DNA of 64,000 nucleotides from Schmidtea polychroa (GCA_044892525.1 CM097885.1:11038001-11102000), one strand, 5' to 3'. Counted from the first letter of the stretch, positions 2,415-64,000 are shown. Notes: generated by a model from the letters alone, not told the origin. Translations and numbers: made by a program.

Positions 2415-3120
2415 AAATCATCAGTTATAACTTTTTCTCACCCGTTGTCGTCTTTCTGTGATAATACTGCTCCAATCGTGTCAAAACTCGCATCAGTATC
2501 CAGTATGAATTCTCTTTCGAAATCTGGAAACCCTAGAATAGGTGAGGACACTAAAGCATTTTTCATATTTTCGAATGCGATGTTGCATCCGTCAGGTCAA
2601 ATTAATTTTTTGTTGTTTAACCCGCATATCTCTTCTAAACCTCTTGCCTTTTTTGCGTATTCCTTTATAAATCTTCTGTAATAATTGCATATTCCTAGGA
2701 AGCTTCTCAAATTCTTAACACATTTTGGCTTTTCAAATGATTTATTCGCGTTTAGCTTTATTGGGTCCGTCTGCATTCCATCTTTGTTGATTATATGACC
2801 TAAAAATTTGACGTCCTCTTTAAGGATATGGCACTTTTCAAGGTTTATCCTAAGACCCGCCTTTCCAATTTTGTCCAGTACTTCATTTAAAACTTCGTTG
2901 TGGTAATTGATCGTTTCTGTAAATATCAAAATATCGTCTAGATATACTGCTGCATATCTCATACTCATTAATACTTTTCCCATCAGTTCCCGAAACGTAC
3001 CTGGTGCCGCTGCTATTGCAAATGGCATTCTGTTAAAACAGTATTGCCTTGACTTGGTTGAAAACGCCATTTTTAGATTTGATTCGTCTTCTAGTTCTAC
3101 TTGATAATATGCATTTCCAA
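2415..3120 (-). mobile_element. Gypsy/Ty3 pol fragment (RT and RNase H start)
   Basis: GNAYYQ..., FNRMPF, YLDD catalytic motif, VKFLGH, LRSFLGICNYYRRFI, then PILGFPDFEREFILDTDAS...IGAVLSQ after an in-frame stop. Confidence 0.92.
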
Positions 3121-5208
3121 TTAAAATAATAAAAAAAAACTTAGTTAATTTCTTCCAATTTATTTATACAATCAGCTTCAACCAAATGTTTTCGTTCTGG
3201 GATTTGAGATTTGAGATTTTTTTCCTATTTATTTGTATAGTTAACCTCAACCAAAAGTTTTCGTTCTGCGACTCGAGGTTTGAGATTTAATGGGATTTAT
3301 CCTAATTGTATTAGTTGTATAACATTTTTTGTGATTGATTTTTTATTTGTGTTCAATATTTGTATAACGATAATTTACCATAGTAAATTATCGCTATATA
3401 GTTTCTTTTAATCTTTCTAAAACGCGATACGCGCCAAATGAAATAACCAAACGTTACAAAACCTTGTTAAAAAAAATAAAATATAATTATACATTACACA
3501 CTCAATTCTCTTTTTATGCGGTTTTTATGCGATTTTGAAATAATGCGGTGCAACAAAAATTTTTTTTAAATAACCAATTTTCTTTGAATAAACACATCTA
3601 AAATGTTTAAAAAAATCAATAAATTTATATTAAATAAACACTCAAACTTACCTGTGTGTTGATTTTTAGCGCTGCAATGAATAAACGCATTTAATATCAA
3701 AAGTGAGAAAGTGGTAGAAAAAATAAACTGACACCCATAGTAAAAAATGCATGCAAAATTTCGATATGTAGTAATAAATGATGAATGTGTCGTTGTAATG
3801 AATAAACGCAATATAATAAATCATTTACAAAAATTTTTAGAGAAATTTGGAGGATAAGATTTTTGACGAAAATTCCGAAAACTCAACATAATTTCGTAAG
3901 ATATATTTTAAATTTTTAACAAATTTAATTGTTCTTTAGTATTTCACACTGTCCTATTTAGATATATTTACATCTATTTAGTTATATGTAACAAAGCCAC
4001 TCCTTAATTTCAATTAAACAAATTAATTTTAAAAATAAAATAAATTAATTACATATATCTATGAATGGTACTTGTGTAAGTGAATTCCAGAGTTATATAG
4101 ATAAATATCTATGTAAAAAAAATTTTTGTGGAAAAGTTGGTGATTTTTGGAATTTGATTAGTTTGCTTGCAACAAATTGATTTACTTTTATTTTGTGTTA
4201 TCTTTTAATTTTATTTTGATTTCAAAAACTTATTAAAAAATAATTAAATTAAAATTTAATTGCAATTAAGGGGATTATTGTTATATATAGCCATTTTTGA
4301 TGCATTTTAAGAAATTATTTTGGTTTTATAAGATTTTTTGAACGCATTTACATTTTGCATATAAATATGTCTTTTTTATGCGATTTTTTTATGTGGGAAT
4401 TTCCATGGAAAGTATATTTTGGTTATTGTTTCGTGGAGTGGAATGTTTGCGATTAAAGGGCCCACCTAATTTATATTATGATTGAAGTAATTTGACCGAC
4501 ACTTATGCATAGGGTTGTAATATTTCCTTTTTAGGATTTCATTATTTTTTCATTTTGCTTTAAATTATTTATCAATGCTCTTTCGTATTTAGCACATTTT
4601 TTCGGAACTGCTTTTTATTAAATAAAACTTGGGAATAGGAAGTGCCGGAAATTCGTGTTAAATATGAAGTCAAAATCGAAATCGAAAATAAAAATATTCT
4701 AAATAAATTTAAAAAATGCAAGATGAAAAAAAAAGAAAAATGATTCTGTTGTTGTATTCAATAAAATTCCAATTGTGCCATCGATGGACAAAATGTGATC
4801 AAAATTGTCATTTGTTTTATTATTAATTGTACATTTTTATTGGCTGGATTTCTGAACGCTTAGTGTGTGCGTGCGTGAGTGCGCTTTGTAGCTTTAATTT
4901 TATTGGATTACATAAATATCATTTCTAGAGAGTAATTGAAAGCAATTTTAATAAACTTATTTATTTTATAATAAATTTTCCTAAACTTAAAGTGAATTCA
5001 GTGAATTTCTGAAAAAAATAAACCACTAAATCAATATTGCACTCGAGGTTATGAAATGGAATCGAAATCACTTGAAATTAGTTTTCATCAAACTATTCAA
5101 TTAAACAAACAATTCATCTCAAATTCCAATATTCCGATGGAAAAATTAAATAAAGATTTGATCGAATCACAGCTATATGATTTGGAAATAATAAAATTTA
5201 TTAATTAA

Positions 5209-16681: not shown

Positions 16682-17530
16682 TGTTTTCGTCTAAGACAAA
16701 TCAGAAGAATTTCTTTGTAATTAATCGCATCACACGCTTTATTTATGCAAAACCATTGTTTGTTAAACCATTTAACGTGTCCAATAACTTGAGATTGAGC
16801 CATGATTGAATTGGAAACATTGGATAATTGTTCAACACTTTTGCTAATAAACATTTGAGTTGTGTTGATCTTTTTAAGAGCTCGATTAGCAAGTTTATCT
16901 TTTTATCGCTAATGTCATAAATGGTTTCAGATAATTTACGAATATCTTTAAATTTTTGGGGAAATTCCATAAACATATCTTGGAGTTCCTCTTCTGTCAT
17001 TTCATGATTTACAGAAATTAAATCTTTGATTTCCAATCGTTTTGATAAACTTTGAAAAATTGAATTAATGTCAATTAGAAATTTTGAAATATAAACGAAT
17101 TCATAAAAATATCGATTATCTATGACATCTACATTACTTCCAATAATAATTTGCAACGATCTTGTTGAGCCACGATTACATGGACAAGTTTCACTGCTGA
17201 AAAGACATCTCTTCGCTATATTGCTCATTGAAATACGACATATCAAACATTCATTATCATCCATATTTCAAATTTCACTTTTAACATACCAATCAATTGA
17301 TTCAACCAAACAAAGACTATTTCTAGAAATACAATCAATTCCTAGAATTCAAATCAAAATCTACAAATTAATATAAAAAAAACTAATTAATAAAAATTGC
17401 GACATACCTATTGCTCGCGTCTGTGTGCGCACATCTATATTACCATAATTCTGCACATAGACGCGAGAACAATCAACCAACAAACTGCCAGTCAGAGGTA
17501 AATGTCCTTCCCCTCTGACTTGTCGAAACA
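16682..17530. mobile_element. 849-bp TG...CA insertion with imperfect TIRs and 5-bp TSD, carrying an ORF
   Basis: It splits the Gypsy RT between ...NAPLV and LVILGKK. TSD ATTAG at 16677-16681 and 17531-17535. Ends are TGTTTTCG(TCTAA)GACAAATCAGA and TCTGACTTGTCGAAACA. Confidence 0.85.
16743..17264 (-). CDS. Hypothetical 173-aa cargo protein with a Cys-rich N-terminus
   Basis: Uninterrupted ATG-to-stop ORF filling most of the insertion (MDDNECLICRIS...CPC...); no family recognised. Confidence 0.5.
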   Translation of the reverse strand: MDDNECLICRISMSNIAKRCLFSSETCPCNRGSTRSLQIIIGSNVDVIDNRYFYEFVYISKFLIDINSIFQSLSKRLEIKDLISVNHEMTEEELQDMFMEFPQKFKDIRKLSETIYDISDKKINLLIELLKRSTQLKCLLAKVLNNYPMFPIQSWLNLKLLDTLNGLTNNGFA

Positions 17531-19772
17531 ATTAGTGATACTAGGGAAGAAAAATGGATCTATCAGGATGTGTGTAGATTATCGTGGATTAAATTCCATA
17601 ACAGAAAAAGAGTCATTTCCAATGCCTAATACCAAATTCTTACTAGACTGTCTCACTAATGCAAAAATATTTTCGTCAATCAATTTAGGTCAGGCGTATT
17701 ATCAAGTGAAATTGACTCCAGAAATTCAAGAAATGGCTGCATTCAGTACAAGAGAAGGACAATTTTGCTTCAATAGACTACCGTTTGGCTTAGCAACAGC
17801 CCCTATGACATTCCAGAGATTGATGCACACAGTGCTGGAAGAAATGCTTTTCAGTCGGGTAGTAGTTTATCTATAAAACAATATATGGGCCGGTTTAGCA
17901 AACAGATTTTTTTAACTGCAATCACAAAGCAAAACGAAGAGACAATTTTCAAAACGATACTTAATAGTTGGATCTATCGATTCGGAAAATCGAAGAGCAT
18001 TTTAACAGATACAGGCCGCTATTTTGAAGGGAATTTCCTTAAACAAAAGCTACAGAAACTTGGAATTAAACAGGAATTCAGCTCACCTTACCTGCATCAA
18101 TCAAATGGTTTAGTCGAACTAGCCATACGAACGATAAGAGATTTTTACCACAACATTGGCAGGTGGATGTGAAGAGAGAAACTGACACGAACTTCTACCT
18201 AGAATAGAGTTCACTACAAATAGCAGTCGACAAAGTGCTACAGGTTTATCACCATTTGAGATAATTTATGGACGGAGTGTTAACCTACACTCTAACCTGA
18301 AATAAGCCGAGATATCAAGAAGCGAAAGAATTGAAGACGTGAGATTTAACTCTAGTAAAACCGCAGACACTATGAGAGCTATGGATAAGACAAAGAGGGG
18401 CACTCGTGTTTTCAAGGTGGGAGAGAGGTACTCGTACGTAAAGAGACGCAGAACAGGCACAAGGATAGTATGCAATACAATGACCCATATAAAATTGTCA
18501 GATTTCTATCACCTCATCGAGTCGAACTACATTCACAAGAAAGAGTGACAGAAAGATGAATCGAGTGGCTGAAGAAGTGGAAAGTCTTAAGAAGGGAAAA
18601 GTTAGATAATTGAGTTTACGCGTTTTTGTGAAAAATTAAAAAACTTTTTATATAATAAATTTATGTCAGATTTGAAGATGGGTTTAAAGGTAATTATTAC
18701 TGGCATTTATATAATTGACTGTGGACACTTATAAAAAAAGAAATTTATAACGAAAAACAAGTCTTTAATAAATTAATTAGATATAACTATAATAAACTAT
18801 TAAATTTTTATATTTTATACAGGTCCAGTTCAAGCACTTTTCTTTTACTTTTACTGTAAATTAAAAAATAAATTTTCAAAATTATAATAAAATCGTTTTT
18901 AAAATTTTAAGTTTCACTATGGTAATAAATTGTCAAATGCGCAATTATTGAACTGATAATTTCACTTTAAACAAAAAATTTGTTTAAATATTCACATTTC
19001 TTTTGAAATAATTTGTTATTTAATATTCAATGTCATATAGACAATTTGACATGTTATAAAATTTTAAATTTATTCAGATTAATTATTTAATATTTAGATA
19101 TTACGAGGTTATTTTTAAAGAATATTTTAGTGTATTAAGTATTTCATTATTTATTATTTAGAATACTTGGAGTCAAAATTATAATAACAATAACAGGAGT
19201 AATTTTAACTATTTAAAAAAATGTAAATTAAATTTTAATGTTAGGCTTAGATCGTAATTTACCTTTAATTATAATTAATATAATAGAATTAACTAATGTA
19301 TATATTTTAAAATTTTATGTAGATTGATTATTATAATATATCAAACCAAAGATACTAACACTTATAACGATACACAAATAAATATATATAATTATAAATT
19401 AAATTATCTTATTATTTTAATATTTTATTTCTTTTATTATTTTATTTATTGAATTAATTTCTTTATTTTAGCTTATCTGTTTTTTAACCCCCTCCAAATA
19501 CTTAACTGTTACTATATTGAATATATATCTCCTAATAAGTACCATAAAGCGCTGATTTACATTAAATATCTGACAGAAGTATGAAACAAAATCATTAGAA
19601 ATTTACAATTTATTAATAAAACCATTATATCAATTATTAATTGATTTATTAAATTAATATTATTATTAATATGTATTGATTTTTGAATATATTTTATAGT
19701 AATAAAATAATAATTGATGTTTTTATTATTTGATAAAAGGGATGTTTCATAGGGTGTTTTTAACTGCTTATG

Positions 19773-28181: not shown

Positions 28182-29829
28182 GGGGAAATTGAAGCGTAAA
28201 AAATGAAAAATTTTCAATAATATAATTATTACATTTTTTCAAAGGTAGATCACATGGATCATTGTGTTAAGATTGTAGTGTTGAGCGAAGGTGGTTACAT
28301 GCATCCCTTATCTTACGCAGGATTCATGCACTAAATTACAAAAATGTGCGCGATCATGGGCCTGTCTCCACCATCATCCAGATCCAGCAAAATCATTGAG
28401 AGAGTATTGATTCCAGCAATAAAGTAGTTATTTTGATGACATGATCAAGTCCTATGAACTGGATATTAATGAGACTGGCGGGGACAAGCAAATAGCCATG
28501 TCATTTGATGGAAGCTGGTAGAAAAGATGTCAAACGTCCGAAAATGACCTGGCGTTATGTATTTGCTTATATACTGGTAAAATCAATTGCATCATATTTA
28601 AGAGGAATTATGAAGGAAAGAGTGGTGGTATGGAAGTTGAAGGCGTGAAAGGGATCATGCAGCGTTCTATACAGGCAATATATGGTGTGCAATACACAAA
28701 ATATTTGGGTGACGGAGATTCTAAAGCTTCTATGGCCATATTTCCCAGTAAAGAGAAGCTTGAATGTATTGGCCATGTTCAAAAAAGAATGGAAGGGAAA
28801 CTGAGGCACCTGAAGGCCAGTATGCAAGATAAGAAATTGTCCGATGGAAAGTCGTTCCCCGGAAACGGTCGCCTAACAGACAGAATCTACATAGTGTGGA
28901 GAATATGCCGAATCAAGTACTGACTATCTATTTCCATACATTTTCCAGTGATGGATATCCTTCTCATAAACTGTGTCCATTCGGCTAGGACTCCTGGTGC
29001 AAGCCAAAAGAGACATAGAATCACCAGAAAGTCATTTCACCCACATACAGCGAACTGAGTTCCAAGGACCTTCTCTACAGAGCCTGTATGGAGGAACTCA
29101 GAACCAAAACGAAAACATTGATAGCATAGTGTAGACTTTCTAACGTAAAACAACTTTGCATGCTTTGCCACGCTCCAAATGAAAATATATGTTATCATGC
29201 AACTGCGCGTTTCATGGATATATCAAAGAACTTACCAAAATTAGATTACGTTAGGTTGGATACTGCCCGCGTCGACAAGTCAATGCTAATCTACCAAAAA
29301 CTCATGCATGGCAAAAGGAAGGCAACAGAATCTGTTGGTGATAATTGTGGTGGATTTTGAAAAGTGTGCTGTTTCTCAAAATTATAGTTTTACTAACAAT
29401 TATTGTATTCCGCGAATTAGTCAGGAATTGTGTATTACTCTAATAAATCATAAGTATGTTTTATAAGAACTTTTTTTCCAATTTCACCACTGATTTTTTC
29501 CATTGTATTTATTAAAAAGAGCTTGAAGAATATAAGTAAGTTGTTCTAAATCAAAGTTTTATGTAGAACAATGTGAATCTAATAGTTTTTGCATAACATA
29601 AACAATTTTCATAGAAAATTATGCGTTATGAATAAGTAAAACAGTTGATAAAACAAATGATAAAGCAATTTCTGTGAACTGTGAACACAAATATATAGGT
29701 TTGCGTGATACAGGGTGGCCTGATGTATACCTAGGCAAAATTTCGCATCGATTAGTCACTCCGTTGGTCTCCTCTAAATCAAAAAAAATGTGAAAATTTC
29801 CATAGAATACTATGGGCCCTTATCTTCCT
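28182..29829 (+). mobile_element. Kolobok/Mutator-like DDE transposase pseudogene
   Basis: SFDGSW*KR, SGGMEVEG, YTKYLGDGDSK, KLECIGHVQKRM, DGKS..G.GRLTD. Candidate TTAA flanks at 28178-28181 and 29830-29833; boundaries are tentative. Confidence 0.78.
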
Positions 29830-33778: not shown

Positions 33779-47514
<13,736 letters not shown>

Positions 47515-56149: not shown

Positions 56150-56734
56150 GTTTTTCGAACAATATTATTTTACTTGAGAAAATAACGATGAAATGTTTGT
56201 CAGTTTTGATAAAAGAGAATGGAGCTAAATGCAGCACAGACAAAATCCCGAAGAGTTTTTTAAGAAAATTATTTCTCAAAGTGAGAAATTGGCAGAACAA
56301 TAATACATCCAGTTGACAATTCCCAGACAATTTAAGAGGCAAACACATCGTTCAAATAATGGTAGTTCAACTGTTGAAGAATACTTTCGAAGATTTGTCT
56401 TTATACCATACTTTGATTCAATCATCTCATCGCTGGAGATTAGATTCAATGACAATAACAAAATCAATTTTAGTCTATTTTCACTTCACCCAGTGGAAAA
56501 GTTGAAACTTTCAAATAATAAATTCAAAACTTACACAGAAAACATCATAATGGAGAATCAAATTGAAAACTTTGATGCTGAGAGAAGCATTTTGTTTGAG
56601 ATGCGGTCAAATAAAAATTCGGATTTTGAAATCAAAAGTCCCAATGGAATGATGGATATATTTCAATTAACAGACCTTTTTCCAGCTATTAGGAAATCAG
56701 TTCTTATTGCTTTAACTTTACCAGTGTCTAATTG
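56150..56734 (+). mobile_element. hAT transposase C-terminal remnant, cut by the Polinton insertion
   Basis: IPRQFKRQTHRSN...EEYFRRFVFIPYFDSIISSLEIRF...LFPAIRKSVLIALTLPVSN. It stops abruptly before the expected ERSFS motif. Confidence 0.85.
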
Positions 56735-56770
56735 AGTAGGGTAACATGTGGACCCGGGAACAAAGACATG

Positions 56771-56897
56771 TGACGTCATATATGACGCAATATATACGTA
56801 TTACGTCATAACACCCGTGGTAGGGATATTTTTTAGGTCAAATTTAAGGGTCAACTTATGGTCATGGTAAGGTCACAGTAAGGTCAATCTGGGGTCA
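56771..56897 (+). promoter_or_regulatory. CRE/ATF-like sites and a phased RGGTCA half-site array in the Polinton terminus
   Basis: TGACGTCA at 56771, TGACGCAA at 56783, TTACGTCA at 56801; (A/G/T)GGTCA at 56835, 56848, 56859, 56870, 56881, 56892. Confidence 0.55.
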
Positions 56898-57096
56898 AAT
56901 ATTTAAAATATTTTAAATTTGAATTCCCAAATTATTTTACCATCGATATAAACCATATAACTACTATTACGCTCACGGTAGTACTTTGAGTTTATCCGAC
57001 AAGATATTCTGTCCCCCATAAGGGTACTGCTCACACTCAACAGCTCACAAGGGTATCAATAGAAATATTGTAGCAAAAACTCATATAGTCTATCAA

Positions 57097-57137
57097 CCAA
57101 TCAGAATCATAAGGCACACAATTCTGTAGTATAAATA
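57097..57137 (+). promoter_or_regulatory. CCAAT and TATA box upstream of the Bcl-2-like gene
   Basis: CCAAT at 57097-57101, TATAAATA at 57130-57137, ATG at 57166. AATAAA lies at 57719, after the stop. Confidence 0.55.
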
Positions 57138-57165
57138 AAACATTATATTTTAAATTACTGTAAAA

Positions 57166-57693
57166 ATGTCAAAACCTAATTTCATTGGCAACTTCCTAAA
57201 AGAGATCGTCAGCAAAAACATTACGGAAAGCCTCAGTTTCCTAATCAATCGGACTGAACAAATTATTAAAGGTAACCATATCGACTGCCAGAACATGATG
57301 GATATGGAATGCCTTGAAACAAAGAAGTTTTATTTTAATCGAATCTTCAATTGCCTATTCGACGAAGAAATGAAGTGGACCCGAATAATTGTAGGATTCA
57401 CTTATATGAAAATTATCATCGAAAAAAGTTTATGGGACTCAGAACATTACTACAAGTGGTCTCAAGAAGTAATTTATTTTATAATCTATATTTTAATAAT
57501 ATTCATTTTTTAGATAATCAAATCCAAATTTACTCCGTGGATAGAAGCCAATGGCGGATGGGGTTTATTAAATCAACTCGCCCGAAATGCCAAGGAAATC
57601 GACGAGCACAAAATAAAGTTTAAAAACTATATTAAACTTGCAACAGGTGTTGCTATCTTGTATATTATTTGTCGATTTTTGAATAAAAATTAA
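57166..57693 (+). CDS. Bcl-2 family protein, 160 aa, two exons (57166-57468, 57514-57693)
   Basis: 45-nt GT-AG intron, phase 0. BH1-like LFDEEMKWTRIIVGFTY, BH2 FTPWIEANGGWG, and a C-terminal hydrophobic anchor LATGVAILYIICRFLNKN. Confidence 0.87.
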
Positions 57694-57752
57694 TTTTGTT
57701 ACTTTGTTTTATTTCTAAAATAAATTGACAAGAAATAATTAACTAAAATTTA

Positions 57753-58114
57753 TTAATTAACATATTCGCAATCGTCATCTCCACATTTCATAACATTTTC
57801 GATGACATGATCTATACAATCATTTGTAATATTTTCCAGATCTTTAGCTTCATCTACAGGTTCATCAATTTCTTGGGTGTCATCAGTTTCTTGACTATAA
57901 TCGGTTTCTTCAACTTCCTGATCATCAAATCCTGAATCTTGACTCTCAACTACCCAGCCTATATTTAATGCATTTATATTTAATGCATAATATGTCCTCT
58001 ATTTTTACACCAGCTATTTCTGATAATTTTTCTAATAATAAAAGTTTATTACAAATTCTAAATATTAAATAATTCGATAATTAACTAATCATATTAACCT
58101 TTTTCTGTAGTCAT
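57753..58114 (-). CDS. Putative small acidic protein, about 80 aa, three exons (58114-58099, 58031-58011, 57958-57753)
   Basis: Phase-compatible GT-AG introns of 67 and 52 nt give MTTEKEKLSEIAGWVVESQDSGFDDQEVEETD...CEYVN*. Confidence 0.45.
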
Positions 58115-58133: not shown

Positions 58134-58709
58134 CTATTGTTTAAATTCAAGATAACGAATAATAATTTTATTTTCATCCACAGAGCCACGGGGATCAGTT
58201 TTGAATAATAACAGTTTGTCCATTTCAATACCATAAGATAATGCCATCATTGAACAACCTAATGGTCGCATCTCAGTTGATTGGGTAGAAAGCTGCTTAA
58301 TATCCGCAATAGAACGACATATTATGTCACAAGGCATTTCATATCCATGTTTATATCTAAATCGAGCTGCTTCCATTTGTGCACGACATACTTGATATCC
58401 ATAATCAGGGATCATACCAGTCATGACACCTCCAGGACTTTCAGTAATATTAAACAACCTTGTAGAAGAACTCTTCTCAATCATTTTATCTGGAACCTTT
58501 CTTTGTGTAGCTACTACATCACAATTATTGCATCGAATACCAACGAAAATCCATCCACCAAATAAATTTAATATTAGTTGGCCAAAAACACCATTAACGT
58601 TATCAGGATCTCTTGGGATCATAAAAAAGGAACCATCAGTTTCATTGGTAGTATTTCCAATTTCCATTGAGTTATCAGATTCATACATTTCTTCATTAAA
58701 AGCAGCCAT
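58134..58709 (-). CDS. Chimeric ORF: 50-aa acidic N-terminus fused in frame to an intronless proteasome alpha-6 (PSMA6-like) fragment
   Basis: aa 51-175 match PSMA6: VGIR..DVVATQRKVPDK, LFNITE..G.VMTGM..D...QV.RA..EAA.F.YK.GYEMP.D, IADI.Q..TQ..EMRPLGCSM, KTDP.G. Confidence 0.85.
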   Translation of the reverse strand: MAAFNEEMYESDNSMEIGNTTNETDGSFFMIPRDPDNVNGVFGQLILNLFGGWIFVGIRCNNCDVVATQRKVPDKMIEKSSSTRLFNITESPGGVMTGMIPDYGYQVCRAQMEAARFRYKHGYEMPCDIICRSIADIKQLSTQSTEMRPLGCSMMALSYGIEMDKLLLFKTDPRGSVDENKIIIRYLEFKQ

Positions 58710-58827
58710 ATTTTATCATCATTAGACTCCAGCAAAAAACCAAAAACAACTCATAATTCTATTCAAATCGATAACAACTCTAAAATTACAAAATCACAAA
58801 AACTCTAATCAAAAATTTTCCTACCTC

Positions 58828-58980
58828 TTGCTCGCGTCTGTGTGCGCACACAATTCCAACCAACAAAGCAAAAAGCGCACACAAACGCGACACACCAAAA
58901 ACCCAACCCAAAAAATGACATTGCTCGCGCCTGCGTGCGCACACAAACCCATCACACAATACAACGCGCACACAGACGCA
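58828..58980 (-). promoter_or_regulatory. Repeated GC-rich motif TTGCTCGCGTCTGTGTGCGCACA (candidate element promoter)
   Basis: Copies at 58828-58850 and 58921-58943 (2 mismatches); identical copy at 17411-17433. Confidence 0.5.
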
Positions 58981-59120
58981 CATTGAGCTCATAATTTACC
59001 ATCTATAATGTATATTTGTTTATAGAATGTCTTTGTTTTGCACTGATGGTGCATTTTCATTGTTAAATAAATGAAAAAACAAATACGAGTAAATACATTT
59101 ATTAAATACATCAACATTTA

Positions 59121-59549: not shown

Positions 59550-59594
59550 GAGTTATGATTAAGTTAATAAATTTGTAAATTACTAAAATCAAAT

Positions 59595-59966
59595 TTGTTC
59601 AAAACAAAATTCAACAATATTTATTGGCATAAGGGCGCCGACGAAGAACATGGATTGACGCAATCAAGTTTCTGTCAGTTGAAAAACATGAAAATAGTCA
59701 AGGGATTTGATAAAAACTGGTCAAGTCGTTTGAAGAAAGATGATGTCATCATTATCGATGATTTGTATCAAGAAGGCAATAAAGAAAAGGATTTTAATAA
59801 TTTATTCACAAAAATCAGCAGACATGTTGGTGTAACAGTTATTTTCATAACACAAAATCTATTTCATCAAGGTGGTGCACATCCAACACGTAATTTAAAT
59901 GTACAATATTTAGTTATTTTCAAGAATCTTAGAGATGCAACTGTCATTGATTTTCTTGGACGACAA

Positions 59967-59968
<2 letters not shown>
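59595..59968 (+). pseudogene. Polinton A32/FtsK-like packaging ATPase fragment
   Basis: Walker B VIIIDDL, LFTKISRH, VIFITQNLF, RNLNVQYLVIFKN.RD. Walker A is missing and the C-terminus is replaced by (TA)n. Confidence 0.9.

Positions 59969-60041
<73 letters not shown>
59969..60041. repeat. (TA)n microsatellite at a deletion junction
   Basis: Read directly from the sequence. Confidence 0.95.
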
Positions 60042-60044
<3 letters not shown>

Positions 60045-60119
60045 AACAAGGGGAATTTCGGTGCATTGATACCTTTAGCAATATCATTGTTAGGTGGAAT
60101 AATAGGAAGTCGATCATAA
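60042..60119 (+). pseudogene. C-terminal remnant of an adenovirus pX-like amphipathic core peptide
   Basis: KGNFGALIPLAISLLGGIIGSRS* resembles the adenoviral pX GGFLPALIPIIAAAIG motif and sits just before the integrase. Confidence 0.6.
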
Positions 60120-60159
60120 ACAATGGGTGTTAAATTTAATATTAAATCTTCTTGTTGTA

Positions 60160-60733
<574 letters not shown>

Positions 60734-63326
60734 CAGTGGCGGATTTAGCTATAGGCGTTGGGGGGCGAGTCGCCCCTCCACGCCCCTATTGAATCCTAAT
60801 TGGCACCCCCCAAAGATAATTTTTATGAATGTGTACAAGCATTAAGATTAATCCGATCACTGACACTGACAATTTAATATATCTTTGATTTGGAAGAGCT
60901 AAATGGATTGAAATGTATTCTAATATCACTGCAGCATACAGCTGCTCAGAGTCACCGTTTATAGATTTTTATTATTATTGATAGTACCTATTACTCTGCT
61001 ATGTTGTTAAACATAGTTGATGCTGCACAGCAGCAGGTATATTCTTCAGTAGTGCAGATTACTGCTTACTCAGCAGTGCTGAGACTGCCACTAACCAGAC
61101 GGCCTGGCCTTTCTCTTATTACAGTTATGTCTGTGTACAAAGTTCAACTGGATTTAAGCCACTCCAACTGTTATTCTGCATCATATTAATAATATTACAT
61201 GGCTCCAGTGAAGAGCGACTGTTTGAAGTTTTTAAACTTGTATAGTGTTTTTACATAAATCTAACCATAATAATTATTGTCAAATTGGACTTTTTTTGAC
61301 AAATAAATTATTGCGTTACTATTGAAATATTAAAATAATATTCAATATTGAATTAAAATAAAATTTAAATTAGAGCCATGGCTGAGTCAGCTGGTGACAC
61401 TAATAAAAGGAAAGCAGTTACCAAATTAAGTGGATCATCTAAGCGTAAATTCACAAAGGAAGCCATTCTCAAGGAAGATGCTAGCAAATATATTAAGTTA
61501 ACATCATTCTAAACTGCCAGTAGTTCAATCAACTGAAGTTTCTGCTAAAAATGAGCAGGTATTTGATGATCAACACCCATCTACGCATTCGAGTTCCTGT
61601 GCTGAGCCTGCTGAGACAGAAACATCATCTGAAGTTCTTGTTGAAGATGAGTAAGTACTATCTGTAGTTGATGAACAACACCCAGCAATACATTCATGTG
61701 CAGAGAATACTGAGACGGTAACATTACATGCTTAGGGCTTGAAACATAATCACGGTGATTCAGAATTTGATACAGTGGAAAAACAACTTGCTTCAGATAT
61801 TTTACAAGAACCACTTCTTCCTCAATCCGACTTTCCTACAGATTCAGGACTCTACATTAATACGAGCATAAGCTCGAAACTGATACGAAAATTGTTTGAA
61901 ATCGGACCATGTCAACCTGGACTCAATGAACCATTTCAATTTCCGACAGATTAATTGGGGCGCAAATTCAAATTTCTTGGTACACAAAATGTTTTGGAAA
62001 AGGTAGTATGAAGGAGAAAAGAAATTGGCTTGAATATTCACCAACAAATCAAAAAATGCATTGCCAAGCTTACTGGTTATTCGCTGATTGTAAAACTGAA
62101 AATTATAGCAAGAAATGGTCCGACCCAAAATTTGGAGTTTATGACTGGAAAAAAGGCATGGAAAAGATCGCTAAACATGAAACTTCCAATCAACATCAAA
62201 GTGCAATATGTCAATATTTGCTGGCTAAATATCGCATTTCAAATGATAAAACTGTGATATCTGGTTTGATCTGTCAGGAGCGTTATCAAGTGGAAAAAAA
62301 TAGAGAAGTTTTGAAACGAATGGTAGATGCAACGTTGTTTTTAGAAAAACTAGGTTTGCCATTTAGAGGACACAAGGAACATTCTGGCTCTGACAGGTGT
62401 AGTAATACTAGAAATTTTCGTAAATTGCTATTTTTATTGGCTAAATATGATTCCACTTTGGATAATCATCTAAAGTTTGAAAGGAAAAATGAACTTTATT
62501 TATGAACTTTATTTATGACCTAATTCAATCACTTGCTTCAGAATTATCCGCAAATATTGATAATGAAGTTAGGTCTGCACAATTCCTTTCTCTAATTGTT
62601 GATTCAACAATTGATATCTTCAGAGTTGATCAGATGTCAGTTTCTTTAAGATTAGTGTTAAAATCAGGACAAGTTGTTGAACGATTTATAGGCTTCTACA
62701 TATTGGAAAACAGTAATGCTGCAGCATTTTCTGATATATTATTAACGGAGTTACAAAAGCAAAACAGTGACATTACACTTTGTAGAGGACAGGCATATGA
62801 TGGTGCCTCTGTGATGTCTGGGATTAAAAATGGTCTTCAAACTAAGATAAAGACACTTTCACCAAATGCCATCTTTGTTCACTGTTGTTCTCATGCATTG
62901 AATTTGGTGACTTTTGAAGCAATGTCTCTTAACAGTGATGTTCAGTTGTTTTTTGGTACAACAGAAAAGTTGTATACTTTCCTTACATCAAGTCTACCAC
63001 GACTACATATCCTCGAAGAACATCAGAAGTCTCGATATGAATCGACAGTAGATACTCTAAAACGACTTTCTGATACAAGATGGGCAAGCCGAAAGCATGC
63101 AGTTGATGCAGTTGTTGGATCATTCGCCGCTATTATATCTACTCTAGAAGATATAAATTTTGGGGAATCAAAAGAATACAAAGGAAGTGTCAGAGCAGAA
63201 GCTATGGGACTATTTATTTTAATAACAAAATATTCTTTTGTTTTTCTGATGCTATTTCTACAAAAGCTGTTAGATAATATCTTTGTGTTATCAAACTATT
63301 TGCAACGAAAGGACATTGATATTGCG
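60734..63326 (+). mobile_element. hAT element (ZMYM1-like transposase, frameshifted); right end lost
   Basis: Left terminus CAGTGGCGGATTT. TTF-like zinc-finger remnant RNWLEYS...KHETSNQH, LGLPFRGH, DSTID..RVDQMS, CRGQAYDGASVMSG, FVHCCSHALNL, LKRLSDTRW. Confidence 0.92.
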
Positions 63327-63943
63327 TTTCCAAATTTGTATAGCAGTAAATCTCCTTGTATCCACGTAAGTGACATCTCTGGCATTGAATAGTTGAACAT
63401 TCTCGCCGTACGTGGCCTTCAACTTCGCGTGCAAAACACGTCATTTTTCATTTGGCATTCTCGATTAATATGACCAGTTTTCTTGCATGTCAAGTAATGT
63501 TGTAGTTAATATTACTTGCATCCTAATTGTTGTTTTTGTCGCCCCAAAAAACCTTTGACAATCCCTGATAAAATTTTCTAGATCATCGCCTTTGTGAAAT
63601 TTCTCAGGTAATAGTCTGCTTATCAATAAATCAGTGGTCGTGGTCGCCATGTTAGACGCAATTAAATTCAAATCTTCTTCAAGCATTTATTTTTTATAAC
63701 AACTTCAAAACTGTCTCGTTTACTAGCGTATTTAAACCCCGAGGTGTGATAATTATAATTATTAATGTAATTACTGGTCATACATTTAATTTATTTAATT
63801 TAATATAATTTAATATAATATGATATAATTTATTATAGAATTTAAATATAAAAATTTAATAGAAATAATTATTTCTACTAACTGATCTCACTTCTACCAT
63901 TTAACCATAATAATCTTATATAGGAGTTTACTAACTCCTTACA
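63327..63943 (-). mobile_element. Truncated Gypsy element: 5' LTR (63943-63650), PBS and deleted gag
   Basis: On the minus strand TGTAAG...TAACA is followed by PBS TGGCGACCACG. Gag PEKFHKGDDLENFIRDCQRFF and two degenerate CCHC knuckles (CF..EVEGH.RREC; CQRCHLRGY...C). Confidence 0.82.
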
Positions 63944-63944
63944 C

Positions 63945-64000
63945 ACCCCATCCGCCATTGGCTTCTATCCACGGAGTAAATTTGGATTTGATTATCTAAA
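63945..64000 (-). repeat. Exact 56-bp inverted copy of the Bcl-2-like intron end/exon 2 (57509-57564), running off the window
   Basis: The reverse complement TTTAGATAATCAAATCCAAATTTACTCCGTGGATAGAAGCCAATGGCGGATGGGGT is identical to 57509-57564. Confidence 0.95.

Follow-up and report, generated by a model that had tools for sequence, protein, structure and literature searches.

We analysed a window of 64,000 nt from Schmidtea polychroa (CM097885.1:11038001-11102000; G000:C1), to which all positions below refer unless another locus is named; the assembly searched is AT-rich and comprises 781 Mb. Our analysis showed that the Bcl-2 gene at 57166-57693 of this window is a terminal accessory gene of a multi-copy Polinton/Maverick family and not a host gene. 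The explanation that we consider probable as a whole is that this accessory gene is expressed and spliced and encodes a tail-anchored Bcl-2 protein, most likely a pro-survival one. A sequence-only reading of the window had proposed a spliced, Polinton-borne Bcl-2 homologue. Its observation is confirmed as described, and its interpretation is partly supported, being right in this core.

The gene and its signals are organised as follows.

57097-57137, plus strand: promoter, with CCAAT at 57097-57101 and TATAAATA at 57130-57137.
57166-57468, plus strand: exon 1, with the ATG at 57166; 101 codons encoding N-terminal helices and the BH1-like MKWTRIIVGF.
57469-57513, plus strand: spliceosomal GT..AG intron of 45 nt, from GTAATT to TTTTAG.
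57514-57693, plus strand: exon 2, 59 codons and TAA, encoding the BH2 sequence PWIEANGGWG, a linker and the C-terminal hydrophobic anchor LATGVAILYIICRFL.
57682-57701, plus strand: poly(A) region, with AATAAA at 57682-57687 overlapping the last codons and poly(A) addition after 57701.

The spliced product is 160 aa long. The intron is in frame and TAG is its last codon, and for this reason a listing of open reading frames (ORFs) splits the gene. TATAAATA stands 36 nt upstream of the ATG, and both promoter motifs are conserved between subfamilies of the element in a 12-sequence alignment.

Profile and alignment searches show that the predicted product belongs to the Bcl-2 family. The Pfam query was the translation read through the intron (TAG = X), not the spliced protein, and it matched the Bcl-2 profile PF00452, whose curated gathering cut-off is 31.4 bits, over profile positions 6-100 of 100 (E 6.7e-7, 30.2 bits). 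Sister copies, read through likewise, reached 33.4-34.5 bits and are over the cut-off, and exon 1 alone gave an E value of 0.0015. When the protein was searched against PDB chains with phmmer, BFL-1/A1 came first (E 0.0014) and Bcl-xL next (E 0.013); nearly all of the 60 chains listed were Bcl-2-family proteins. The alignment pairs MKWTRIIVGF with INWGRIVTIF, and WIEANGGW with WIRQNGGW of BFL-1. The BH1 sequence KWTR keeps the W and the R of NWGR, and it lies 39 residues from PWI in the spliced protein, a distance that fits BH1 and BH2. The best hydrophobic 15-mer, LATGVAILYIICRFL, is C-terminal (mean Kyte-Doolittle value 2.07) and flanked by K and NKN, with just these last three residues between it and the stop, as in a tail anchor. 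Atlas features of exon 1 were nearest to Bcl-2 clusters (0.92), with 18 of the 30 matches in that set.

Four independent lines of evidence indicate that the intron is real. Its length is 44, 45, 46 or 48 nt in different copies, with the exons constant at 303 + 180 nt. In a young subfamily of the element, all five copies have a 44-nt intron together with identical, intact exons, and retention of 44 nt would shift the reading frame. Three short ENA proteins (P0004-P0006) are 69-73% identical to the gene product over exactly exon 1, and they diverge completely directly past its final SQE/SLE. The splice junction is collinear, without a gap, with the uninterrupted paralogue L045, the end of exon 1 lying opposite E128 and the start of exon 2 opposite L129; the intron-encoded residues form an insert without counterpart in any uninterrupted homologue of the same alignment (A1). 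Contigs of public runs were also mapped to the window (X1, X2, X5 and X6, the last two being RNA by guess). One X6 contig joins 57468 to 57514, skipping 45 nt bounded by GT..AG, with 50 letters on its shorter side and a depth of 7.3. With an identity to the window of only about 85%, this contig originates from a related copy. The joint was absent from the 6,784 contigs (828 + 5,956) of the deep runs X1 and X2, which resemble genomic DNA in showing many differing flanks at 56735. One X5 contig ends at 57701 and continues with 21 untemplated A, which places poly(A) addition 14 nt past AATAAA and 8 nt past the stop codon. Splicing and polyadenylation are thus shown for at least one relative copy.

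Most of what the sequence-only reading had said of the gene itself agrees with these results. The ORF track does split the gene, and removal of the GT-AG intron does yield the 160-aa protein. The KWTR, BH2 and tail-anchor assignments are borne out by the PDB alignment and the hydrophobicity values, and the Bcl-2 homology by the PF00452, sister-copy and PDB matches. Splicing at the predicted sites is supported by the variable intron length, the collinearity with L045 and the X6 contig. The upstream CCAAT and TATA motifs also stand, but the downstream AATAAA had been misplaced, as the hexamer in use is the one at 57682 that overlaps the last codons, and not the one at 57719.

The evidence that the gene belongs to a mobile element came from its copies. 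A DNA search with 56700-57800 gave 4,782 first-look candidates, among which there are 50 or more genomic matches. The majority of these start at query positions 33-38, that is, at 56732-56737 of the window, and several form inverted pairs 8-12 kb apart. One diverged copy class, whose identity to the window is 84-88% from position 57084 onwards, is part of a young element of 16.6 kb, which is present at least twice with 98.8% identity over 16.7 kb. Its terminal inverted repeats (TIRs) are 657 bp long and 98.3% identical, with the termini 5'-AGTAGG..CCTACT-3'. Both of the two copies are flanked by 6-bp target-site duplications (TSDs), CTTGCA and GAAGCC. A 6-bp TSD is a hallmark of Polintons.

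On the 3' side of the Bcl-2 gene, the 16.6-kb element carries in order two small minus-strand ORFs, a TBP homologue, an ATPase, an integrase, ORFs of 362 and 122 aa, a 427-aa ORF, an adenain-type protease and, by the right TIR, a 1102-aa ORF. The TBP homologue (PF00352), between the small ORFs and the ATPase, was found at L030:3449-3910 (minus strand, E 6e-15) and at L024:5474-5905 (minus strand, E 2.5e-11). The ATPase is of the Pox_A32 type (30.4 bits, cut-off 22.8) and the protease matches Peptidase_C5 (26.8 bits, cut-off 21.3). The integrase, an ORF of 417 aa, matches rve with an E value of 1.6e-5 and 25.5 bits, under the cut-off of 32.6, and contains a chromodomain match (E 3.8e-4). The 427-aa ORF has 171 homologues, and its model (pLDDT 85.8) is a double jelly roll that matches the major capsid proteins of iridovirus, PBCV-1, Sputnik and mavirus in Foldseek (E 1.7e-16 to 1e-12, TM 0.5-0.63). 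A minor capsid protein was not identified among the ORFs of this element. The 1102-aa ORF contains KLLNNSLYG and DTD, which we take to be motifs of a type B DNA polymerase (PolB), and a deletion derivative of the family gave a weak DNA_pol_B match (E 0.006). Searches of Pfam, PHROGs and PDB sequences named none of the 1102-aa ORF, the 362-aa ORF and the small minus-strand ORFs beside the gene. The capsid fold, the element genes, the TIRs and the TSDs together indicate a bona fide virus-like Polinton/Maverick family.

Comparison of the copies showed how the gene is maintained. Between the window copy and the young subfamily, non-synonymous divergence (dN) was 0.087 and synonymous divergence (dS) 0.92, giving a dN/dS of 0.09, and two other intact copies gave the same value. 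Within the window subfamily, dN/dS was 0.74-1.36, that is, about 1. Both exons and the splice sites are intact in 4 of 21 copies of this subfamily (the window copy, L006, L002 and L003), and five of eight sampled copies of the 84-88% class are intact. These rates show purifying selection that acts between active element lineages and not on inserted copies. Strong selection between lineages together with neutral decay after insertion suggests that the gene serves the element and not the host.

The sequence-only reading had held the gene to be Polinton-borne, beginning about 430 bp inside the terminus, and both statements are upheld by the multi-copy family, by its TIRs with 6-bp duplications, by the neighbouring capsid, ATPase, integrase and protease genes, and by a terminus at 56735 (5'-AGTAGGG) with the ATG 431 bp inside. 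It had also claimed that the gene is preserved beside core genes that have been broken. That is true of this copy only and does not hold for the subfamily, given the 4 intact copies among 21, the within-subfamily dN/dS of 0.7-1.4 and a truncated second copy in the same element.

We further compared silent sites among six lineage representatives (window 57084-57800, L030, L032, L033, L034 and L018), which form 15 pairs. Third codon positions were 58-87% identical. The 82-nt upstream promoter stretch was 84-95% identical, above third positions in all 15 pairs, and the intron 82-95%, above them in 14 of 15; the 107 nt past the stop were 77-93% identical. The conserved non-coding parts are exactly those missing from the mature mRNA. 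This could reflect dense regulatory constraint or, possibly, faster silent change in the expressed part.

In the window subfamily, the gene lies within the terminal repeat itself.

56735-57701, plus strand: left TIR of the subfamily, from the terminus to the poly(A) site, with the whole Bcl-2 transcription unit inside.
63945-64000, minus strand: inner end of the right TIR, which extends beyond the window to window-equivalent position 64773 and holds a truncated second gene copy.

The stretch 57509-57564 is perfectly complementary to 63945-64000 (56 nt, 100%). Over the whole element, 56735-57564 pairs with 64773-63945 at 98.3% over 830 nt, and only this left part is still paired; the right TIR has been cut short, and the second gene copy (L005) breaks off after GGWG. 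The gene was present in both arms in all four paired elements of the subfamily, with inverted repeats of 830, 969, 1135 and 3221 nt. A location inside a TIR of about 1 kb gives each such element two copies of the gene. Many copies cease to resemble the window at 57696-57701, where the poly(A) site lies. This limit, together with the presence of the gene in both arms, indicates that the terminal repeat has expanded to include the entire transcription unit. The TIR of the young subfamily, in contrast, stops about 160 bp short of the gene promoter (L030:763 vs 920); here the gene comes first after the left TIR, and each element has one copy. A further element of the window subfamily (L022 + L023, G000:C1:203691000-203702500) is a near-palindrome with a 3,221-nt inverted repeat at 98.0%, both arms of which hold the Bcl-2 gene, the small ORFs and a PolB fragment.

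The element in the window, from 56735 to about 64773, is a dead remnant of about 8 kb, riddled with insertions and reduced by deletions. Its flanks TAATTG and AACTTG match at four of six positions. Two core genes are recognisable in it.

59572-59971, plus strand: ATPase remnant, weak Pox_A32 match (E 0.031), 91% nucleotide identity to the 5' part of the gene in the 16.6-kb element.
60034-60733, plus strand: integrase remnant, rve match (E 0.021), about 81% nucleotide identity to the integrase of the 16.6-kb element.

An (AT)n tract at 59969-60041 lies between these remnants, where about 630 bp are missing. The small-ORF region is kept, and it is broken by a copy-specific insertion of 865 bp at 58138-59002; all other copies of the element join 58137 straight to 59003. 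A minus-strand ORF in this insertion (58134-58712) matches the Proteasome subunit family PF00227 (E 1.2e-25, profile positions 4-133 of 189). We considered this ORF as cargo of the Polinton and rejected it, as it sits in an insertion of this copy only; it is probably a truncated copy of a host proteasome gene inserted into the element. Beside it is a direct repeat of 54 nt that is rich in GC (58828-58974). Unrelated transposon material follows the integrase remnant, including a DUF4371 domain at 62493-63389.

Near the left end, a perfect CRE-like palindrome, TGACGTCA, is found at 56771-56778 and a near copy, TTACGTCA, at 56801-56808, both within 75 bp of the terminus; they could be terminal promoter or replication elements. 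At 56987-57027, contig depth in the DNA-like runs was 10- to 100-fold above that of neighbouring bins, which suggests that this short terminal stretch also occurs in a much more abundant repeat. Elsewhere in the window, the segments 2600-3163 (minus strand), 17502-18169 (plus), 28522-28920 (plus), 33782-36653 (minus) and 61930-63389 (plus) contain mostly mobile-element fragments and kinase gene exons. These comprise retroelement reverse-transcriptase/integrase fragments, a Mutator-like transposase fragment, protein-kinase exons and the DUF4371 transposase-like domain, the last of which falls inside the Polinton remnant.

The genome-wide PF00452 scan gave 909 first-look candidates. Among 150 scored matches, 26 were of the type with a single TAG to be read through, in frames of 170-180 aa. 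Five host-like Bcl-2 loci keep an intron that splits BH2. Its GT lies directly after the GGW codon in L042, L045 and L048, and two codons later in both Bok genes, L043 and L044, which are 91-92% identical to the proteins named Bok-1 and Bok-2 of Schmidtea mediterranea. The Polinton gene lacks this intron and has its own 12 codons upstream, 8 codons before PWIEANGGW, at a position that none of the sampled host-like Bcl-2 genes uses.

In alignment A1, the host-like locus L045 (G000:C1:268544203-268544481) was 25% identical to the Polinton protein, and L043 and L044 were 11-12% identical. A 166-aa protein, P0007, was 34% identical (E 3.3e-5). L045 and P0007 are the closest relatives that the searches found. 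L045 and P0007 resemble the Polinton protein in their odd BH1, [KR]W[ST][RQ] for NWGR, in their similar size and in the tail anchor. However, L045 has the BH2 intron (GTGAGT after the GGW codon) and is found at one locus, whereas the Polinton gene is multi-copy. When 1.84 billion representatives were searched with phmmer, P0005 and P0007 were the only matches at E ≤0.001. Word-indexed searches returned three short ENA proteins corresponding to exon 1; the profile of A1 contributed no more than planarian Bok-1 and Bok-2, which it reached by way of its host sequences. We infer that the gene may derive from an ancient capture of a flatworm host paralogue, perhaps via a processed transcript, with the intron gained later.

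Two matches from a metagenome scan with exon 1 (L049 and L050) were rejected as chance matches in bacterial DNA, which bears genes for an S41 peptidase and an ExbB-like protein as well as an Nqr operon, and a scan of viral contigs with exon 1 found no relatives. With P0007 as the query, the scan of viral contigs gave a Bcl-2-like stretch of 31% identity (L051), encoded by a 129.6-kb viral contig (IMGVR_UViG_2974554825_000001:1-11457, match at 3206-3457).

The PF00452 scan also brought up other kinds of Bcl-2 matches. Dozens of open frames of 1,000-3,090 aa have a weak match of about 29 bits; there is a multi-copy class of intronless 152-aa genes; and seven strong (68-bit) intronless copies are clustered on contig 4 at C4:89.9-90.8 Mb (L041). 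Further example loci of the scan are L047 (C1:6418985-6419263) and L046 (C1:15405873-15406136). We also entertained the doubtful idea that several kinds of mobile element recruited Bcl-2 domains separately and that the silent-site pattern is a signature of an arms race or of constraint. The separate recruits may be the Polinton gene, the intronless 152-aa gene and the giant frames of retroelement size. The signature might stem from an arms race in which host small RNAs silence the element, or from some other constraint on the non-coding DNA. If this were true, hundreds of element-borne death regulators would stand beside a handful of host genes.

According to the explanation that we favour, a CCAAT/TATA promoter belonging to the gene, about 430 bp from the end of the element, would drive its transcription, the host spliceosome would remove the intron of 44-48 nt, and the transcript would be polyadenylated 8 nt past the stop codon. 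The product would be a 160-aa tail-anchored Bcl-2-family protein. Its anchor may sit in the mitochondrial outer membrane or the endoplasmic reticulum membrane, and its BH1/BH2 groove may hold host proteins of the Bak/Bok type or BH3-only proteins. The cell might thereby be kept alive during replication and integration of the element, as with known viral Bcl-2 proteins. Viral Bcl-2-fold proteins are expected to block host cell death during replication, and we lean towards a pro-survival action of this viral type.

Several observations weigh against this explanation. The window copy scores 30.2 bits in the Pfam search and 30.5 bits in the genome-wide scan, about 1 bit under the curated cut-off, with the 15 intron-encoded residues lowering the score. 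In BH1, the glycine of NWGR is replaced by T, and this glycine is important for mammalian Bcl-2 function. The AlphaFold2 model of the read-through protein is all-helical and poor (pLDDT 57.4, pTM 0.35); its top PDB matches in Foldseek are all Bcl-xL, Bax or schistosome Bcl-2, and all are weak (E 0.02-0.13, TM ≤0.39). The transcript evidence for splicing consists of one contig of a relative copy, from one run whose RNA nature is a guess, and that for the poly(A) site is likewise one contig from a run guessed to be RNA. Of the 21 copies in the subfamily, seventeen are broken. Genes for PolB, capsid and protease are missing from the window element, and this copy may be silent. The PolB-like 1102-aa ORF of the 16.6-kb element has no Pfam or PDB sequence match. 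Finally, the data do not separate a pro-survival from a pro-death or a non-apoptotic action.

A reading of the locus as a host gene, or as a functionless passenger or pseudogene near transposon debris, might appeal to the degraded window element, its broken neighbours and the decay of most copies. It is refuted by copy number, TIR location and the selection signal, and we regard it as highly improbable. At least 50 copies start at the same element terminus, the gene is inside TIRs with TSDs, dN/dS between element lineages is 0.09 at a dS of 0.92, the five young copies are all identical and intact, and the gene lacks the BH2 intron of the host-like genes. A pro-death, pore-forming member of the Bak/Bax/Bok type, which would kill or permeabilise the cell, for example for particle release, could have the same layout of several BH motifs and a tail anchor as effector proteins have. 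Bax chains do occur among the weak Foldseek matches, and the profile search with A1 did retrieve planarian Bok-1 and Bok-2, yet because of the host sequences in that alignment. By sequence, however, the protein matches the pro-survival BFL-1/A1 and Bcl-xL best, and the Bok genes are not the closest ones (11-12% identity vs 25% for L045). The stretch opposite NELDR/VQLES of Bok reads INRTEQ, with no Gly-Asp BH3-like core visible by eye. To our knowledge, all viral Bcl-2 homologues are pro-survival. We consider a pro-death role unlikely.

The Bcl-2 fold might also have been turned to a non-apoptotic job, such as blocking innate immune signalling or autophagy, in the manner of poxviral Bcl-2-like proteins. 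This would suit the divergent BH1 (KWTR) and the high isolation of the family, with its two matches at E ≤0.001 among 1.84 billion representatives; as a lead only, one Atlas neighbour cluster mixes the Bcl-2 and Poxv_Bcl-2-like families. But the BH2 motif is canonical, BH1 retains its W and R, and the tail anchor is present, as is typical of membrane-anchored regulators that use the groove, so that such a role also seems to us to have only a small chance. The pro-survival reading is preferred over both, and the anti-death direction proposed in the sequence-only reading is likewise best put as what the gene would probably do.

Among cellular proteins, human BFL-1/A1 and Bcl-xL align with the Polinton protein in BH1 and BH2 (query residues 24-132). 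However, this match is weak (E 0.0014-0.013), BH1 has T for G, BH4 is not recognisable, and the Polinton protein has a length of just 160 aa. Viral Bcl-2 proteins are encoded by adenoviruses (E1B-19K), herpesviruses and poxviruses. The Polinton protein still matches the cellular Pfam Bcl-2 profile and has a near-canonical BH2, whereas E1B-19K has a family of its own, which was merely a distant Atlas neighbour cluster of exon 1. Like poxviral host-interaction genes, the Polinton gene sits in a terminal repeat region.

Full-text literature searches found no description of this gene under Polinton with Bcl-2, and only general repeat censuses under Maverick in planarians or Schmidtea. Homologues of Bcl2 and IAP have been observed in adintoviruses, and the maps of Supplementary Fig S2 label Bcl2 genes (Starrett et al. 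2021, PMC8502044). The sequence-only reading overstated the novelty of the gene in this respect, as these homologues had already been published. In the maps compared, Bcl2 is an accessory gene on a Polinton-like animal virus with PolB, integrase, hexon/penton, FtsK-type ATPase and adenain genes. It is drawn first or last, i.e. at the genome end, as in the planarian element (PMC8502044). The planarian gene differs in its flatworm-type host, in being endogenous with dozens of copies and TSDs, in its short spliceosomal intron and in lying wholly inside the TIR in one subfamily. The likeness is drawn at the level of the family, and with respect to the proposed Adintoviridae, only the gene order of the planarian element resembles the published maps. 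Anti-apoptotic homologues have also been reported in most mammal-associated adintoviruses (Buck et al. 2024).

The giant Burro Gypsy retrotransposons of planarians carry BCL2-like and BIR motifs (Arkhipova and Yushenova 2019, PMC6431247, citing Grohme et al. 2018). Burro thus shares with the Polinton gene a Bcl-2 domain on a planarian mobile element, but, as portrayed there, its domain is embedded in a retroelement polyprotein, whereas the Polinton protein is free-standing, 160 aa long, tail-anchored and encoded by a DNA element. The frames of 1,000-3,090 aa in the present genome may be Burro-like.

The planarian family provides a well-documented case of a Polinton behaving like a virus in managing host cell death, comprising gene structure, transcript ends, a selection signal and the full element context, in a host group whose stem-cell and cell-death biology is intensively studied. 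It indicates that short spliceosomal introns conceal such accessory genes from ORF-based annotation, that a host-interaction gene can be engulfed by growing terminal repeats and so be doubled in dose, and that element-borne copies dominate the count of Bcl-2 genes in genomes of this kind (909 first-look candidates vs a handful of host-like loci). This kind of feature is already known from adintoviruses; what is new in the planarian element is the host group, the intron, the duplicated arrangement embedded in the TIR, and the transcript and selection evidence.

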